A stretch of DNA of 64,000 bases from Plasmodiophora brassicae (Eukaryota), in assembly GCA_036867785.1 (NCBI GenBank), contig CP145416.1, positions 992,001 through 1,056,000 on the forward strand, given 5' to 3'. Position 1 is the stretch's first letter; each line of letters opens with the position of its first letter. Both the position numbers and the translations under genes were made by a program. Below, in pieces: positions 3,431 to 42,940 of the stretch. The notes beneath the pieces are model-generated. The model made no database searches. It worked only from the letters and a program-made list of their open reading frames with translations, and was not told the origin of the DNA.

Positions 3431-3711
3431 AACGCATGGCAATAAACCCGCAGTGTCGTGAGCATTCATGAGGCTTTCGTTTCTGCTGGCCGCGTTGCTG
3501 TGTGTTCGTTGCCCCGCTTCGGGCGACGGCGGCAAACCGTGTTCCTACCCGTGCACGCTATCTATTCGGGCAGGATCGTCACTTGTATCAGCGTTGCTGA
3601 CCCGGCCCCTGTGAACTTGCAATATTTTACGCCTCCTGTCTATGCAATATGTAGTTCGGCACGGTCCGTGACTCGGAGGGCGGGCGCCGCCGCTCGCACT
3701 GCTATTCGCGG

Positions 3712-3817
3712 TTCGCCACTGCAGTTCGTCAGTGCAGTTCGCCACTGCAATTCGCCAGTGCAGTTCGCCACTGCAAATCGCCAGCGAAGTTTGCCACTGC
3801 AAGTTGCCAGATCGCCA
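3712..3817 (+). repeat. Degenerate 13-bp tandem array (about 7.5 units, TTCGCCA[C/G]TGCA[G/A]) alternating as a 26-bp dimer
   Basis: Read directly: TTCGCCACTGCAG TTCGTCAGTGCAG TTCGCCACTGCAA TTCGCCAGTGCAG TTCGCCACTGCAA ATCGCCAGCGAAG TTTGCCACTGCAA GTTGCCAG ATCGCCA, ending 2 nt before the ATG at 3820. Confidence 0.9.
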
Positions 3818-27005: not shown

Positions 27006-29853
27006 ATGCCGTTTGATGGATGCGGCGACGACGGTGCGCCCGTGTTCCTATGGGTGTGCGGCGGCGGGTTCGTCTCGACGCCGATCCTGATCCAGGGCCA
27101 TGACGTCGCTGCGCGATCGCGCCAGCCCATCGTGTGCGTCGGCAACCGTGCCTACATTGCCACGCGTAACCCCGGGGGGATGTTCTCGTTGCCGGCGGCC
27201 AGTCTGATGGGTTTCCAGAAAGTGGGCAGCTGCTGCGATGGAATATCTACGCGGAGTCGAAAGATGGGCCCGGGTCACTGTCCCATGCACAGTTCGAAAC
27301 GCTTTCGTTGCAACATGGGCGTGTATCTGCCGTCTCAGCCAGCAGGCGGAATGTTGTCGTTGTTGATGACATTGGAATGGTCTGGTCGATGGGACGAGAC
27401 CAGGACGCATTCGTGCAGATACCCATCAAGGCGACACGGATCGTTCGCGTTGCGTGTGGAGCCCGGTTCGTGATTGCACTTTCAGGTCAGCACGCTATGT
27501 GCCCATGCCATCCCATGTATTCGATATAACGTATCGGTCCATCCAGATCACGGGACGGTGCTTTCGTGGGGCGATGCCACAGACTGCCTAGGCAGACAAC
27601 CGACGAGTAACGAAGTCGACGTCATTGTCAACCTCCCAGATAATGTTGTTGCCATTGCTTGCGGGTGGGCGCATGCATGTGCCGTGTCTGCCAAGGGCCG
27701 GCTCTTCGTTTGGGGGGAGAACCGCCAAGGTTGCCTAGGCACTGGTGATAACAATGATCGCGTGCTTCCCGTCGAAGTGGATCTGGATAATGTTACTGCC
27801 GTTGCATGCGGCTACCAGCACACGATGTGTCTGACCAAATCCGGGAAGGCTTTCGCTTGGGGATGCAACATGCACGGGCAATGCGGAGACCCTTCGATTT
27901 CGACCGCTCTTGTCATGCCGCACGAGGTCCCCATGAGCAGAACGGTTATCGACATCGCTTGCGGTGCGTTTCACTCTGCGTTAATCACAACTGACGGGGA
28001 CTTGTTCATGTTTGGTACGTAACCCTATAATTCTGCAATGCCCCCACCAGTGTTCAGCTTGGTTGTCGCAGGCCTCAACAATGGCGGTCAGCTTGGTCTT
28101 GGTGACTATGACTTGCGCAGACAGCCCGTTCGCATTGATTCGATGCTGGAGAAGAATGTTCGTTCTCTTCTTTCGCGTTACCGACTGCGTTTAACTAATT
28201 GCCAACGTCGCAGGTGCTCGCCGTCTTTTGTGGCGGATTGACAACCATCGCGTTAACTCAGAACCTGATCGGTTTCTCCTGTAGCGACGATCATTTTAGT
28301 CTAGCGCATATTGAGACAGGCAGTGGCTGGGATCAACTTGGAGTCGTGTGTAAATCTACCTATCGTCACCGGTCGACGTTGCTTAGTGGCTGTGCAGGTG
28401 TCGTCTCCCCAGCCTCCGGTCATGTATCAGGAGATCGACGGCGTCGACGACTCTAGCCCTGTTCGTGTTGCAAGTGCTGCTGAACAAATATCGAACGTTT
28501 TTCGTCTTGACGACACGTCTACCTCTGGAGCGTCCGAGCCGATTCGCGTCTCTTCTGATGACCAACGATATCGGAGGGAATTACACCGAATGAGCCAAGT
28601 GTATCGGGAGAAACTGCTCAAGGACACCCACCGTCAGGCTGTACAGCAATGGCAAGCGAACTCAGTGATCATGGAGGCTGACCGTGAACGCGAGAGACAA
28701 CTTCATCTCTCGCAGCTGAGGGCTGCTGCAGTGGAAGCTTCAGTCAAAACGTGGATGAACGATATCCTCAGGGATTTCAACAAGAGACGAGATGGCCGAA
28801 AAGCACTTGGTACGTTGACCAATCCAAGGAACTGCTGTGCCCTGTCGGCTAATTTGTAGGCTGGTGTATGTTCAGATTTGCTGTACAAGACGGGTATTCC
28901 ACCGCGACTGCGGTCAATCGTATGGCCTCGTGCTATTTCAAACAGTCTCTTGATCAACACCGAACTGTTCAGCGTCTTCAGCGCCAGAGCTAAACGCATT
29001 CACATGGAGATCTTGGCAAAAGGAGAACAAAACGGGAGCGCCGCGCTTGCTGTAGGACGCGAGAACACCATCTACTACATCGAAGTTGATCTGCAGCGAA
29101 CCTTCCCTTCTCTTGCCTTTTTCCGACGCGGACAGCCACTTCATAGCGAGCTTCGCAACCTCCTCCAAACCTATTGCTGCTATCGTCCTGACGTCGGGTA
29201 CGTTCAAGGGATGAGTTACCTTGCTGGGGGTCTTCTCCTTTACCTGGACCCGTACACCGCGTTCTCGACGTTTGCAAATCTCCTGACGATGCCACTTCTC
29301 CATTCCTTTGTCCGCATGGACTCTGAGGCAATGAGCACCCATTACGCAATCCACGCGTGTCTTCTTCAAGGACTGCTTCCCCGACTTCACACCCACCTGT
29401 TTAGCGAAGAAGTTGCTATCTCCCCGCAGCTGTACATATTGGAGTGGTTTATGACGGTAGGCGCGCGAGCCATGGTTGGTGCTGTCTAATCTAATTCCTA
29501 CGCGATGCACAGCTCTTTTCAAAACGCCTCAATCTGATCACCTCCGCTCGATCATGGGATCTCATATTTACTCTTCCTGCTCCACATGTAACAATCCACA
29601 GAACCGCGGTCGCCATCCTTGCTTGCGTTCAAGACCGCCTAGTTGGGCAACCGTTTGATGACTGTATGTACGTGCTCAATAACGAAACCAAGGTGGGATG
29701 TTGATGGCGCACACACGATACTTTCGCGTTTGTAGTAACAGTTTAGTCCAGGCTATATCTGTTCATGAGCTGATGTCCGCCATGTCTGGCATCCGTGTGC
29801 CACCATCTATTGTCATCCAGTTGGACAATCTCAATAACCAGATAGACCGATAA
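27006..29853 (+). CDS. RCC1-repeat + TBC (Rab-GAP, TBC1D12/14-like) fusion protein (multi-exon)
   Basis: RCC1 repeats IACGWAHAC..VWGENRQGCLG, VACGYQHTM..WGCNMHGQCG and IACGAFHS. TBC domain GIPPRLRSIVW, IEVDLQRTFP (R finger) and GYVQGMSYLA (Q finger). Stop at 29851-29853. Confidence 0.9.
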
Positions 29854-29879
29854 ATGAACTCCCGTAAAGTATTCAAGGA

Positions 29880-30828
29880 TTGGACTGCCGTCGCTGTATG
29901 CTTCGCAGGTCCGGACATGGGCCGATCAGGCCAGGAGCGACTGTTGAAACAATGATCCGGCAACGTCTCCCGAAGATATCGGTGGCAGTTCCGTGGGACA
30001 GACGACCGTGTTGGGCATCGCTTGAGTTTGGTGCGTGTCGATCGCTGAACAATGATCAGCCGACTCCGTGCTGATAGTCTCTACTAAAAAGTAAAGCGTG
30101 CGCCCATAAACTTGAACTATCTCTACCCATTCGGCGATCAAGTACCTCTTTATGTACATGAACAAAGGTACTGATCGGACCTCTTTCCGAAGCAGCGGGG
30201 GATCCCGACGATCCAGCTCGCCAAAACGAGATTGACCTGTTCCAGGACGCTCGCTACCTAACTTCCAGCGAAGCCGCCTGGCGCCTGTTCGGTTTCCCCA
30301 TGCATCACAGCTCGCACAGCTGTGAAATCCTGAACATCCGCCTGCCAGGACGCCAGCTCTATGTCAACGATCGCAAGCTGACATCGTATTTCGAACCGTT
30401 CAGCACGAAACAGACGTGGTACAATTGTGGCACGACGGTAGCGTTGCGACTGGAGCGTCGGGTCCATGTTCTCGTCGATCTGTTCCACTTGTACCATAGG
30501 CATGTGATCATACGTCAAGCCAGTGGCAGGTGGGCCGCTGTTGAACGTTTCGTGTGACAAGGAATTAATTATCTGTTTCGTGCTGGACGGTTCGAAATAC
30601 GATGTCAGCTTGCGATCGTTGACATAGAGCTGGCGTCCTGGCAGGCGAATGTTCAGGATTTCACAGCTGTGCGAGCTGTGATGCATGGGGAAACCGAACA
30701 GGCGCCAGGCGGCTTCGTGCGAAGTTAGGTTGCGAGCGTCCTGGAACAGGCCAATCTCATTTTGGCGAGCTGGATCGTCGGGATCCCCCGCTGCTTCAGA
30801 AAGAGGTCCGATCACTACCTTTGTTCAT
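29880..30828. mobile_element. Decayed Helitron Rep-helicase fragment rearranged as a fold-back
   Basis: Peptides AIKYLFMYMNKGTDR, EIDLFQDARYLTSSEAAWRLFGFPMH, KLTSYF, LTY, YKWNRSTRTWTRR and PQLYHV match the order of conserved Helitron RepHel motifs (KYLFKY.KG.DR; ARY..EA.WR.FGF; LT..F; Y.W..W..R..GRLY). Frameshifted. Confidence 0.85.
30158..30828. repeat. Long inverted repeat: arms 30158-30414 and 30572-30828 (257 bp each), 157-bp spacer
   Basis: Direct comparison of the left arm with the reverse complement of the right arm gives about 10 substitutions and no indels by manual count (about 96% identity). Confidence 0.95.
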
Positions 30829-30842
30829 CTGTAAAGGGCGCT

Positions 30843-30890
30843 CGGTGGGGCTTCCGGTGGGGCTGCCGGTGGGACTTCTGGTGGGGCTTC
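30843..30890 (+). repeat. 4 x 12-bp G-rich tandem repeat (CGGTGGGGCTTC)
   Basis: CGGTGGGGCTTC CGGTGGGGCTGC CGGTGGGACTTC TGGTGGGGCTTC. Confidence 0.85.
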
Positions 30891-31782
30891 TCGCTGCACG
30901 TCACTCTTGGTTGCGCTCACCACAGCACTGCGGCGGTCTTCCTGCAGGCAAGGCTACTTTCTTCTTCGTGCGGCGGCTCCTTCCTTGCCCGTCACACCGG
31001 GACCGAGCACTGCAGCAAGCCGTTCACGCACGCGGGCACCACCACCACGCTCGACTGCACCTCGAAACACGACTTCACAAGTACGTGCCTCTGTTGGAGC
31101 ATGAACCGCGCTCTAGACGGTCATGTGACTGACGGCGACTCACACACAGGGTTGGACGAGTTAAACGCCCATACCAGTGCTTCATGTTGGGCAACTGTAA
31201 TGGCACTATTTGGACCGTGTCAACTGGACATTGATACCAGACACTACCGCCGCCATGACCTGGCCGTGCCGCCGCACCATCCGGTTCCGTAGTCCTCAGC
31301 ACTGCCTGACATTCTCTATTTCTTTCGCGCCTGCAACCTCTCCTATGGCTGGAAAGCGCTCCTCTGGCAAAGACAGTATCGAAAGTCGCGACTATCATGC
31401 CAAAAGGATACGACCTCCCGCTGCAAGACACTGTATCGACACACCAGAGCCGCATGGCAAAGGGATACGATCCGATGGCCCTGCGTCGTCGACTTCCACT
31501 GGCGGTTCTTCGTTACTGGCTAAATAAACTGAGGCACGCGAAGGCGATGTCCTGTGCAACAGCAGCAAGGACGACAGTGGCCTCCAGAGACGCGGCCGTG
31601 CTCTGGACGGACGAAAACGGACACGATGGGGAGCACCTTGATCAGCCGATCACGCTTCACATCTAAGATCGCCTTGACCACGCGAGCGTTCCTTCTTGGC
31701 AAAACCTTATTGAGTGGATCTTGCATCAACGACGTCGATCGGGTGACATTGAATAATATGGGAAGTAGACGAAAACGGAGGA

Positions 31783-33068
31783 TTACACTGGAAATTGTGC
31801 ATTGGACTGAAACTTCAGTGGCTCATTTCCCCATGAAACCCAACCAGGTTTCAAATTTCGTGCAAAGAGCTCAAGCTTTCTAGGATACTGATCACCGAGT
31901 AGGCGATCAATGATCGGCTTCTGAGAATGCGCTTCCGGTCGACTAGCGATAACAGCTCTCGAACAGAGTGCGGGAACAACATCGGGTCTGCAGCCAATCA
32001 CAAGCTGCTCATAGGGTTTGTGGTGACCACAGCGGATATCTGTACATGCAATCATGGTCAGCCGTACAAAACGACCCAGCCGCCACCAGTGACAGTCTGA
32101 CCAGATACGGGATCGAAATCCGGTGACAACTTGAGCCAGAACCAGATGCCACAACGACGTACGCCCCATGACGGAAACAGTTCCGTCTCTACAAAGCGGC
32201 GAAGTTTCGGGTCATTCGTCACCCAAACGGCAACAACGCCTTCTCTTGGATTTAACAAATTGCCTATCGTGTCTGAGAAGTCGGCAAGCCACCCGCTGAG
32301 ACGAAACAACGTACCGACCGGTAGCTGCAACAGACGGTTGTGCCGCATGGTAGGATAGACCTTTGACCGGTGAACACTCTTGTTGTCCCACGGCGGGTCG
32401 GCCACGATCAGGTCAAATCCGGAATCAGGGCGTGTCTGGAAAAGAAGGTCGACTTGCGATACGTCGCTCATAACAAAGGCACTATGCCGGGGAATGTAGA
32501 AAGAGTCGTCGAACGCGTCGAGGACCCTGACACAGTTGGAATCGTTTGTCTATAGAACACTCAGAGCCAAGTTACGTGCAACGCAAGCGTATGCATACAA
32601 CAACCGTGTTGCAAACCCGCATAACGTCCTCAACAGTAACTCGTTCGTCATACAAGCCCGCAGATTTCTTAGTAAAGTCATCGCAGCTTAAGCGCCAGCA
32701 CATGGAAACCTCATCGTCGGCCTGTTCCACAGACTCGCATTCCAAGTCGTCCTCATCTCCTAGCACCCGTTGTATGTCTCTGCGATGACATGACAGTATC
32801 TCCACGAACTTGTCGAGGGCAGACAGTTCCCTGAACAAGTACAATGAGCATGAGAAACGCCCAATCACGCATGTCCCGATTACTCTGCCGGCAACGTCGT
32901 TTCCGTCGACGCGCCGTTGCGCGCGCGCCTCACAACTCGGCTGTACTGGCAACGCGGCGTAAGCTCAGTGCCCGACCACAGCTGTCGTCGCACACCAGCC
33001 GCATTCAGCACCCACCCAATCGGCTCCCCAGCCCCGTCGCGAAGCTCAACGACGTGCGGCTTCGCCAT
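31783..33068 (-). CDS. METTL4: MT-A70 family N6-adenine methyltransferase METTL4 (multi-exon)
   Basis: FDLIVADPPWDNKSVHRSKVYPTM, VAVWVTN, LFPSWG..WFWLK, HKPYEQLVIG, HSQKP and LELFARNLKPGWVSWGNEPLKFQ, the METTL4/DAMT-1 clade pattern. Confidence 0.92.
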
Positions 33069-40927: not shown

Positions 40928-42940
40928 ATGTTGGAGCACGTCTCCACGCTTGCGCTGATTGCGTTCCTGTTGGGCATCTCGTTCGGGGCCGACCCTGATG
41001 GGCTGGCGGTCACCGGCGGCGTACCAAGTTCGCCAGGAGGAGGTACCGAACACCCGATGCCAGCTTCTGTCGGCGACAACGTTCGCCTGTTCACAGACAC
41101 CGACCTTCGTGAAAATATGGACGGCGCTAATGGTGCATCTTTCGAGGCGGCCATGGAGGTGATGCAAGCGCTGAATTCCGGCGACGTGCTTGCCAGTGAA
41201 CCTGTTCAGGAGGGTACCGCGGAGGAGACATCGTTGAACATCGCGTCTGAGAGCACTTCTGACGAGGAGGAAGAGAAGCAAGTGCTGAATTCCGGCGACG
41301 TGTCTGCCAGCGAACCTGTTCAGACGGGTACCGCGGGGAAGTTAGCGTTGAACATCGCATCTGAGAGCACATCTGACGAGGAAGAAACCAAGCATGTGCT
41401 GAATTCCGGCGACGTGCCTCCCAGTGAACCTGTTCAGGCGGGTACCGCGGAGGAGACAGCGTTGAACATCGCGTCTGAGAGCACTTCTGACGAGGAGGAA
41501 GAGAAGCATGAGGCGTTGTCCACCGACGTGCTTGCCAGTGAGCCTGTTAAGGCGGGTACTGCCGAGGAGGTAGCGTTGAACATCGCGTCTGAAAGAACAT
41601 CTGACGAGGAGGAAAATAAGCAAGTGCTGAATTCCGGCGACATGTCTGCCAGCGAACCTGTTCAGACGGGTACCGCGGAGAAGTTAGCGTTGAACATCGC
41701 ATCTGAGAGCACATCTGACGAGGAAGAAACCAAGCAAGTGCTGAATTCCGGCGACGTGCCTCCCAGTGAACCTGTTCAGGCGGGTACCGCGGAGGAGACT
41801 GCGTTGAACATCGCGTCTGAGAGCACATCTGACGATGAGGAAGAGAAGCAGGAGGCGTTGTCCACCGACGTGCTTGTCAGTGAGCCTGTTAAGGCGGGTA
41901 CTGCCGAGGAAGCAACGTTGAACGTCAACATCGCGTCTGACGGTGGCTCTAATGAGGTCGACAAGAAGGCCCACATTGCATCTGGCAGTGAATCTGGCAA
42001 GACCGTCGGCGGTCAGGACGAAACACCAAAGCCCGACCAAACCCGTTCAGGGGCTGTGGACGCCGAATCGTCTTTCTGCAAACGAGGCTCTGATTTTGCT
42101 AAGCGGCACAGGACGGCCGCTGCTGGTATTCTCATTGTCGCGCTCCTGAGTAAGCAGGGTCTAGTTGGAACCGTGAAGAAGGCCATTCATCGATCCGCTC
42201 ATCCCGCGAAGGTCGACAACAAACCTGCCAAGAAGTCGCGGGAGGTCTCCACGCTGGCCAAATTCGCCATCGGTGGTGCCTCCACCGCTGCGGTGGCTGG
42301 AGCTGGAGCAATCGCGTTCCTCCTGAGCCGGTCGGCTGAGAAAACCCAGCAGACGAATTTGCTGCCCAAGCGCGAGCTGGTCGTTCCCGAGTCCAAACCG
42401 GATAGCACTTCGTCGAAGAACGCCGCCGGGATCATCATCGCGGTCGTCGCCCTGTCCATCGCGGTCGGTGCCTTCGTTGCCTCATACCGCTCTGGAACGA
42501 TCGCGAAGCCCATTGCAGGCCCACCACCCGCCATCGTTGTCGGCGACCCGACCGACGACGCTGACATCGCTGTTGACACCCTAATCGCTCCCGACGCCCA
42601 CGTTCCACCAAGTGATGCACCTGCAGGGATCGTCGGCGCGCTGACCACTGATGCTCCTGAAGTTGTCGTCGAAGTTGCCGGCGATGACGCCGACGCTCCC
42701 GACCGTGATCCATTTGGCGGTGCTCAACTTCCCGTCGTCGACCCCATGGACGATGTTGAAGGTCCAGCCGACGTCCCACGTGGGGATGTTGAAGCGCCCG
42801 CTGCTCCAGGCGCTGCTGCGGATGCTCCAGCCACCACCTCATACGACGTCACTGAGGATCCAGCCAGCACCCCAGACGCTGTCGCTGATGTTCCGGCTGG
42901 CAAGATCGATGTCGGCGACGATACTCCTGCATCCGTGTAA
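40928..42940 (+). CDS. Intronless acidic repeat protein with signal peptide and three hydrophobic segments (670 aa)
   Basis: Long clean ORF: signal peptide, 38-aa acidic repeats, TM-like AAAGILIVALL, FAIGGASTAAVAGAGAIAFLL and GIIIAVVALSIAVGAFVA, then an acidic D/A/P tail. Confidence 0.85.
   Translation: MLEHVSTLALIAFLLGISFGADPDGLAVTGGVPSSPGGGTEHPMPASVGDNVRLFTDTDLRENMDGANGASFEAAMEVMQALNSGDVLASEPVQEGTAEETSLNIASESTSDEEEEKQVLNSGDVSASEPVQTGTAGKLALNIASESTSDEEETKHVLNSGDVPPSEPVQAGTAEETALNIASESTSDEEEEKHEALSTDVLASEPVKAGTAEEVALNIASERTSDEEENKQVLNSGDMSASEPVQTGTAEKLALNIASESTSDEEETKQVLNSGDVPPSEPVQAGTAEETALNIASESTSDDEEEKQEALSTDVLVSEPVKAGTAEEATLNVNIASDGGSNEVDKKAHIASGSESGKTVGGQDETPKPDQTRSGAVDAESSFCKRGSDFAKRHRTAAAGILIVALLSKQGLVGTVKKAIHRSAHPAKVDNKPAKKSREVSTLAKFAIGGASTAAVAGAGAIAFLLSRSAEKTQQTNLLPKRELVVPESKPDSTSSKNAAGIIIAVVALSIAVGAFVASYRSGTIAKPIAGPPPAIVVGDPTDDADIAVDTLIAPDAHVPPSDAPAGIVGALTTDAPEVVVEVAGDDADAPDRDPFGGAQLPVVDPMDDVEGPADVPRGDVEAPAAPGAAADAPATTSYDVTEDPASTPDAVADVPAGKIDVGDDTPASV
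41171..41940 (+). repeat. Coding tandem repeat, about 7 x 114 bp (38 aa), with a 342-bp higher-order duplication
   Basis: Unit starts at 41171, 41285, 41399, 41513, 41627, 41741 and 41855. Units 2-3-4 are nearly identical to units 5-6-7. Confidence 0.95.

Follow-up and report, generated by a model that had tools for sequence, protein, structure and literature searches.

Results

A Long Inverted Repeat Lies between Two Convergent Genes

The window, by which we mean the whole 64-kb stretch of Plasmodiophora brassicae DNA that was analysed and to which all coordinates without a contig name refer, contains a single long local inverted repeat. It is located between the convergent genes RCC1-TBC (+) and MT-A70 (-), and consists of two arms of 257 nt each, 96% complementary to one another, around a 157-nt loop. 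The features of the locus are listed below; C2 stands for the paralog of the arms on the contig of that name.

27474-29853, +: RCC1-TBC gene, 5' extent not delimited (Pfam RCC1 and RabGAP-TBC; GT..AG joints, RNA contigs)
29854-30104, +: transcribed stretch behind the TBC stop (RNA contigs)
30048-30118, +: strongly decayed, possibly Helitron-derived sequence (a weak assignment; 59% to C2 over 30048-30157 jointly)
30119-30157, +: Helitron coding sequence beyond the left arm, unpaired (87% to C2)
30157-30415, no strand: PHAS21-387, mapped (PMC13547706 Table S6, offset 162, reversed contig)
30158-30414, + (sense): left arm, RepHel fragment of a Helitron, from the part between Rep and helicase (84% to C2)
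30415-30571, -: loop, single-copy continuation of the right-arm Helitron copy (84% to C2)
30570-30828, no strand: PHAS21-386, mapped (PMC13547706 Table S6, offset 162, reversed contig)
30572-30828, - (sense): right arm, Helitron fragment (by comparison with C2)
30833-31055, no strand: unrelated low-copy repeat fragment (220 nt) adjoining the right arm (relatives on C5, C6, C15 and C1)
31133-32800, -: MT-A70 methyltransferase gene, stop near 31783, 5' extent not delimited (Pfam MT-A70; CT..AC joints)

Aligned arm against arm, the repeat shows 10 mismatches and no gaps. We thus reproduced the coordinates, arm length, mismatch number and lack of gaps described by a first-pass annotation of this DNA. 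Three neighbouring mismatches at 30266-30268 possibly represent a compensating pair of 1-nt indels, which would reduce the differences to 8 events. The RNA folding proposed in the same annotation gave -586.6 kcal/mol (z -60 against 20 shuffles), and the opposite strand folded similarly (-577 kcal/mol).

Long near-perfect inverted repeats are sometimes read-chimeras, an artefact that the annotation had also considered. In the DNA run X1, however, a single contig covers arm, loop and arm (30370-30616) and further contigs bridge both outer junctions, so that short-read contigs cross every junction and the repeat is real in the genome. The arms moreover differ at 10 places, and the same hairpin geometry is found in a second assembly. 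This contig comparison covered 4 of the 24 listed runs (X1, and X12, X18 and X19 with spliced joints). At least 70% of the words of 29900-31100 were present in 16 runs of 6 studies, none of them recorded as RNA, the best of which could be the window's own source; word shares of 0.27 (n = 4) and 0.00 (n = 4) in other runs are not informative on expression. A TIR, MITE or foldback transposon was rejected as well, as a DNA search of the genome yielded no multicopy unit: the hairpin is single-copy and asymmetric, its arms are internal coding sequence and its only relative is unfolded. We regard an assembly artefact or a TIR/foldback transposon as largely refuted and give these readings hardly any credence.

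The Arms and the Loop Derive from a Helitron Fragment

The only DNA-level relative of the arms in the genome was an unfolded paralog at C2:1517387-1517836, to which they are approximately 81-84% identical (blastn 81-83%; left arm 84%, right arm 82%). This paralog lies inside an 849-aa frame with Helitron_like_N (PF14214, E 8e-38) and a partial PIF1 (PF05970). Since the window's own arm and loop frames matched no Helitron family in Pfam, the Helitron identity was drawn from C2, to whose frame the fragment is 82-84% identical. The arm motifs that had been read as Helitron RepHel are present, and their identity holds through the paralog.

The loop extends the right-arm copy on the minus strand, in agreement with the earlier reading that it continues the protein, and the sequence outside the left arm (30119-30157) has no partner on the right side. 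Each copy therefore carries sequence absent from the other, a pattern that suggests a fold-back by template switching. Both arms carry the same two frame-breaking deletions, of 2 nt and 1 nt, suggesting that the fragment was dead before duplication or that the lesions were copied across later. When the 10 arm differences were polarised by C2, 7 matched the left arm, 2 the right arm and 1 neither; the right arm thus bears 7 of the 9 polarisable differences. Differences between the fragment and C2 were distributed over codon positions 1/2/3 as 8/9/24 (24 of 41 at the third), an excess suggesting that the fragment came from a separate, once-coding Helitron subfamily, of which a genome search found no other copy.

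Helitrons end at the 3' side in CTRR with a subterminal hairpin. Among 41 CTRR sites in 29840-31420, none combined a following T with a strong short hairpin ahead of it on the expected side. The presence of an intact Helitron at the hairpin was rejected: in comparison with a Helitron proper, a RepHel rolling-circle transposon and the source of arms and loop, the sequence here is a non-coding, internal fragment of about 450 nt, frameshifted, with no intact Rep/helicase frame and no termini found. These sequence comparisons show the hairpin to be a Helitron RepHel fragment that, already frameshifted, was folded back asymmetrically on itself. They support the earlier proposal of an inverted duplication of internal Helitron coding sequence rather than TIRs.

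Published Phased siRNA Loci Coincide with the Two Arms

In a published list of phased loci, PHAS21-386 and PHAS21-387 are placed at Ctg_7:348264-348522 and Ctg_7:348677-348935, respectively (PMC13547706, Table S6). When the contig is reversed and an offset of 162 is applied, the hairpin arms fall at 348264-348520 and 348678-348934. We found that the positions of these phased 21-nt loci agree with those of the two arms to 0-2 nt and that the loop is not included, as had been expected of siRNAs produced from the arms. The two loci, of 259 nt each and 154 nt apart, have a geometry that is unique among the 89 close pairs of the table. The offset was first read from the hairpin locus itself and then tested on others; three miRNA sequences of Table S8 were found by eye at the predicted places, on both sides of the hairpin. 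Table S8 contains no miRNA precursor between Ctg_7:243298 and 520877, the region of the hairpin (PMC13547706). This small-RNA evidence consists of loci called in another isolate and listed in a table, not of reads, counts or strands, and the absence of the loop from that list differs from a measured zero. Within the arms, G:U counts were 2 versus 4 by strand.

The hairpin sits between convergent genes, and the siRNAs might instead arise from intermolecular dsRNA, formed by read-through from TBC and MT-A70, or represent mis-mapped reads from other Helitrons. Either explanation predicts cover of the loop and of 30119-30157, whereas both are absent from the listed phased loci, which end at the arm edges; this favours an intramolecular hairpin. 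Mis-mapping is further opposed by C2, which has no exact 21-mer in common with the arms. We therefore consider these explanations highly unlikely.

Most Phased Loci of This Chromosome Overlap Inverted Repeats

To extend this comparison, all other phased loci listed on the same chromosome were fetched. Inverted repeats were overlapped by 16 of the 17 entries (12 of 13 stretches), as compared with 4% of size-matched random intervals (P 2e-16), and the outer edges of phased locus and inverted repeat agreed within 20 nt in 18 of 26 cases. Four 10-kb stretches of this chromosome without a listed phased locus contained no inverted repeat (0/4), and one 149-bp inverted repeat was without a listed phased locus. 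The sole exception, PHAS21-385, has no inverted repeat, which suggests a different siRNA source, perhaps antisense transcription. Its sequence (L128 2978-3585, C8) is single-copy, shows no unusual fold and overlaps a 421-aa frame.

A second chromosome was anchored through a single miRNA recognised by eye; there, PHAS21-173 corresponds to a 170-bp repeat, and PHAS21-165/166 to a 405-bp repeat by geometry alone. A search by eye for miRNA anchors on two more chromosomes (L070 and L123) was negative. The 435-entry table of phased loci contains 89 neighbour pairs within 700 nt (5 expected), and 43 of these pairs are size-matched (21% expected; P 6e-9).

In a systematic sample of 600 kb, local inverted repeats occurred in 17 of 60 fixed-position stretches and in none of the shuffles. 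The 16 loci with arms of at least 70 nt correspond to approximately 670 genome-wide, or about 1 per 37 kb; two of these appear to be gene duplications in inverted orientation. Arm identities of the hairpins range from 76 to 99.8%. Pfam identified pieces of a LINE endonuclease, hAT and a chromodomain in 3 of the 13 other phased stretches and nothing in the rest; one further phased stretch is a member of a repeat family, whose relatives occur at 7 or more other places with 75-82% identity. Pfam named a family in only 4 of 29 hairpin spans (136 frames). Across 30 hairpins, the G:U counts of the two strands were 174 and 177 (heterogeneity P 0.27), and thus gave no sign of selection on one RNA strand. 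These 30 hairpins also showed 351 transitions and 336 transversions, the latter inflated by one poorly aligned locus, with no evident RIP-like or CpG bias. The Helitron hairpin locus is not special, but one of several hundred fold-backs.

Long RNA around the Hairpin

The stop of RCC1-TBC at 29853 is 305 nt before the left arm, close to the 300 bp or so noted before. TBC RNA contigs ended at 30102 and 30104 in two studies and at 30150 in a third run, a weak hint of an RNA 3' end at 30102-30104, about 55 nt before the left arm. MT-A70 RNA contigs reach 31133 or further left, 400-760 nt past the stop, toward the hairpin (31133-31782), a long 3' region notable for a compact genome. Two of the three RNA runs, X18 and X19, gave no contig over the hairpin, which was not counted as silence. 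In run X12, a contig of 608 nt (window 30338-31048) combines right-flank sequence with the outer right arm, the inner left arm and the loop. The switch between arms falls within 69 nt of identical sequence, where the assembly graph may have caused it; X12 is presumed to be an RNA run and may include DNA. This contig carries outer right-arm and inner left-arm alleles, a flipped loop and C5-type flank alleles, and may be either a graph artefact or the trace of an isolate in which the loop was inverted by recombination between the arms. The RNA contigs carry no strand or start information.

The first-pass annotation had proposed that read-through from RCC1-TBC could transcribe the hairpin. The RNA contigs do not show it: those of two studies stop at 30102-30104, and the sole RNA-derived contig over the hairpin, that of X12, links to the right flank instead. 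Between TBC read-through and transcription from the right side, the former is not favoured.

No Perfect Helitron Target Was Found for the Arms

None of the 237 21-mers of either arm had an exact match in C2. One mismatch separated 18 left-arm and 12 right-arm 21-mers from C2 and two mismatches 42 and 28, respectively, so that 60 of 237 left-arm 21-mers lie within 2 mismatches. Against two C7 Helitron stretches and two other fragments, no arm 21-mer matched within 4 mismatches. A Helitron protein search of the genome returned at least 48 matches, all of which were scored; about 30 are a multicopy repeat adjoining the C2 frame and not Helitron, and there was no intact Helitron among the 48 matches listed. 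Multicopy elements truncate the C2 Helitron on either side, and the middle of its PIF1 helicase is missing. The C7 Helitron, whose protein is approximately 42-48% identical, is interrupted by an element that has a 1651-aa frame and direct repeats of 200 bp. From the 21-mers compared, siRNAs of the arms would match perfectly only their own precursor, and would need 1-3 mismatches to be tolerated in order to act on the C2 relic.

These data bear on the idea, put forward in the first-pass annotation, that the locus silences the Helitron family as maize Mu killer silences MuDR. Mu killer arose from active MuDR, which it silences dominantly; a hairpin RNA and siRNAs have been proposed, and the read-through model is disputed (PMC3440606). 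The anatomy is alike, both being inverted duplications of transposon coding sequence beside a gene; siRNA loci cover the arms here, and the TBC contig of one run reaches 30150. However, Mu killer has arms of about 1.3 kb, and the 257-bp arms of the present hairpin came from a fragment that was dead first, with no matching active element found. The near-identity of arms to an active element was not found (the match lists are lower bounds), the only DNA-level relative is broken and shares no exact 21-mer, and the search for intact matching Helitrons that had been suggested found none. In addition, the reported absence of an RdRP (PMC13547706) excludes amplification of siRNAs. Because there are no exact shared 21-mers, the relatives are broken and no intact Helitron was listed, the locus is not a Mu-killer equivalent today; a TBC read-through hairpin silencing an active Helitron in trans is very improbable.

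RNAi Machinery

Two full-length AGO frames stand in tandem in the genome, and RNase III is matched twice in one gene, which also has a dsRBD; each of three further RNase III matches has a single domain. Searches of the genome for RdRP (PF05183) and Dicer_dimer (PF03368) gave no match, with the controls equally silent, and the absence of both therefore rests on the published account, in which P. brassicae has the same AGO/RNase III set, no Dicer and no RdRP (PMC13547706). The same study reports abundant phased 21-nt siRNAs and cleavage of dsRNA by PbDRL, and states that the source of the dsRNA is unknown. Its phased loci contain 5,280 of 78,890 annotated siRNAs, and RNase III/Argonaute dependence is published for small RNAs other than PHAS21-386/387 (PMC13547706).

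Discussion

The data presented above suggest that the locus is an endogenous hairpin-siRNA locus, one of several hundred fold-backs that jointly are the probable source of dsRNA; we put the probability of this reading at roughly 0.8. Fold-backs of transposon debris would thus probably supply dsRNA in an organism with neither RdRP nor Dicer. As phased loci contain 5,280 of 78,890 annotated siRNAs, to call them the main source is an extrapolation; one chromosome was tested in full.

We suggest the following course of events. An already out-of-frame Helitron fragment may have been duplicated in inverted orientation, for which a single template switch in replication or repair is the simplest route. 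This would leave near-identical arms that flank a single-copy loop, with a convergent gene on either side. A transcript that runs through the two arms would fold into dsRNA of about 257 bp. PbDRL, a Drosha-like RNase III, would then cut the hairpin into phased 21-nt siRNAs for the two Argonautes, an assignment drawn from published in vitro and knock-down data (PMC13547706).

The hairpin corresponds to PHAS21-386/387 among the phasiRNA-like loci of PMC13547706, by its own account the first RNAi study in Rhizaria (2026). The main text and docx supplement of that study link phased loci neither to inverted repeats nor to Helitron, and use "inverted" 0 times and "palindrom" once, in a miRNA example. 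The text of a P. brassicae pangenome preprint has no mention of inverted repeats, palindromes, hairpins or siRNA, and in the literature, subscription papers and preprint supplements excepted, we found no link of P. brassicae siRNAs to genomic inverted repeats.

In the budding yeast Naumovozyma castellii, palindromic siRNA loci resemble those of P. brassicae in that RdRP is lacking, the RNase III is non-canonical and inverted repeats are the siRNA sources. These yeast loci derive from Ty relics. They account for 74.1% of wild-type reads (bioRxiv 10.1101/2019.12.12.873604). P. brassicae differs in being a rhizarian with a Drosha-like enzyme, 21-nt products and arms of several transposon classes; the published table holds 346 of its phased clusters. 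Drosophila hpRNA endo-siRNA loci are likewise genomic inverted repeats diced without an RdRP, an enzyme that flies are not known to possess. The endo-siRNAs of hpRNAs are used against selfish elements (PMC10317233, PMC10292708). In contrast to their few loci with defined gene targets, P. brassicae has hundreds of loci.

With respect to function, the chances are about even that the hairpins are a neutral by-product, in that intergenic debris would readily fold back, PbDRL would cut any long transcribed hairpin, and the present locus would have no important target. The hairpins are of all ages, judged from arm identities of 76-99.8%, they show no strand bias, no perfect target of the present one was found, and the flanking mRNAs seem to end before the hairpin in two of the three RNA runs. 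On the other hand, about one repeat per 37 kb appears costly for a compact genome without benefit (a judgement made without a control genome), and the 16 runs of 6 studies carry at least 70% of the words of the hairpin stretch.

Selected transposon immunity is possible but less probable. Hairpins would be retained as a store of transposon fragments, their siRNAs would repress elements of related sequence, and the present one would have helped to extinguish, or would still guard against, a Helitron subfamily. The several classes represented in the arms (Helitron, LINE endonuclease, hAT and chromodomain), the arms that belong to a repeat family found at 7 or more other places and the additional fold-backs within or next to Helitron and retroelement relics are consistent with this view. 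So are the broken state of every examined Helitron match, the 60 of 237 left-arm 21-mers within 2 mismatches of C2, and the third-position excess (24 of 41), which points to descent from a distinct subfamily that once coded for protein and of which no other copy turned up. However, no exact 21-mer occurs in any tested Helitron stretch, none within 4 mismatches occurs in C7, and the fragment was already dead before folding back. Moreover, the arms are not nearer to C2 than is the loop (84/82% versus 84%), and only 3 of 13 other phased stretches have a transposon-type Pfam family. It is conceivable, and rather doubtful, that an siRNA pathway running on several hundred dispersed fold-backs, which would arise frequently from fragments of all transposon classes, forms a scattered, self-renewing memory of past invaders in the absence of RdRP, Dicer and piRNAs, with the present hairpin as one entry and its source Helitron subfamily gone.

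The single Helitron hairpin alone has a modest meaning, as no live target was found. Together with its neighbours, it offers a concrete answer to the open question of the dsRNA source, namely genomic inverted repeats, many of them from transposon relics. If this is true, P. brassicae would parallel budding yeast independently, dominant siRNAs of long hairpins might account for many of the 234 miRNAs annotated in it, and the natural substrates could guide designers of RNAi-based clubroot control.

Additional Observations on Repeats

Published precursors of miR102, 103, 104 and 109 lie within long inverted repeats or phased loci on C8 (L126, L136 and L140), and these miRNAs may therefore be dominant hairpin siRNAs. 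Nested or overlapping fold-backs, some with 2-nt loops, were observed at L016 1-2893, L022 1297-1746, L029 1099-1271 and L052 8281-10000, in or beside other Helitron fragments and retroelement relics. A fold-back at L123 381-838 (C20) was blank in Pfam; by eye, we take it to be a copia-type integrase relic. The hairpin at L100 2903-3795 (C17) is very young, with 405-bp arms, 1 mismatch and an 83-nt loop. Inverted coding duplications were found at L088 1-4509 (C5) and L090 3346-8346 (C7), one of them with Laminin_G_3 and arms 99.5% identical. Around the C2 Helitron relic, a nest of multicopy elements (C2:1511000-1527999; L049, L050) includes a 3,144-bp inverted duplication of 99.97% identity.

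The low-copy repeat on the right flank of the hairpin (L006, L059, L062 and L063) has long frames on C5, blank in Pfam. It was rejected as a captured gene or Crypton piece, with Pfam blank and atlas matches below 0.9; one of these matches was to a tyrosine-recombinase N-terminal family, which is a lead only. Fold-backs also occur a few kb or less from the copies of this repeat on C15 and C1. The window also contains two tandem arrays, with 114-bp units at 41041-42024 and 13-bp units at 3682-3810.
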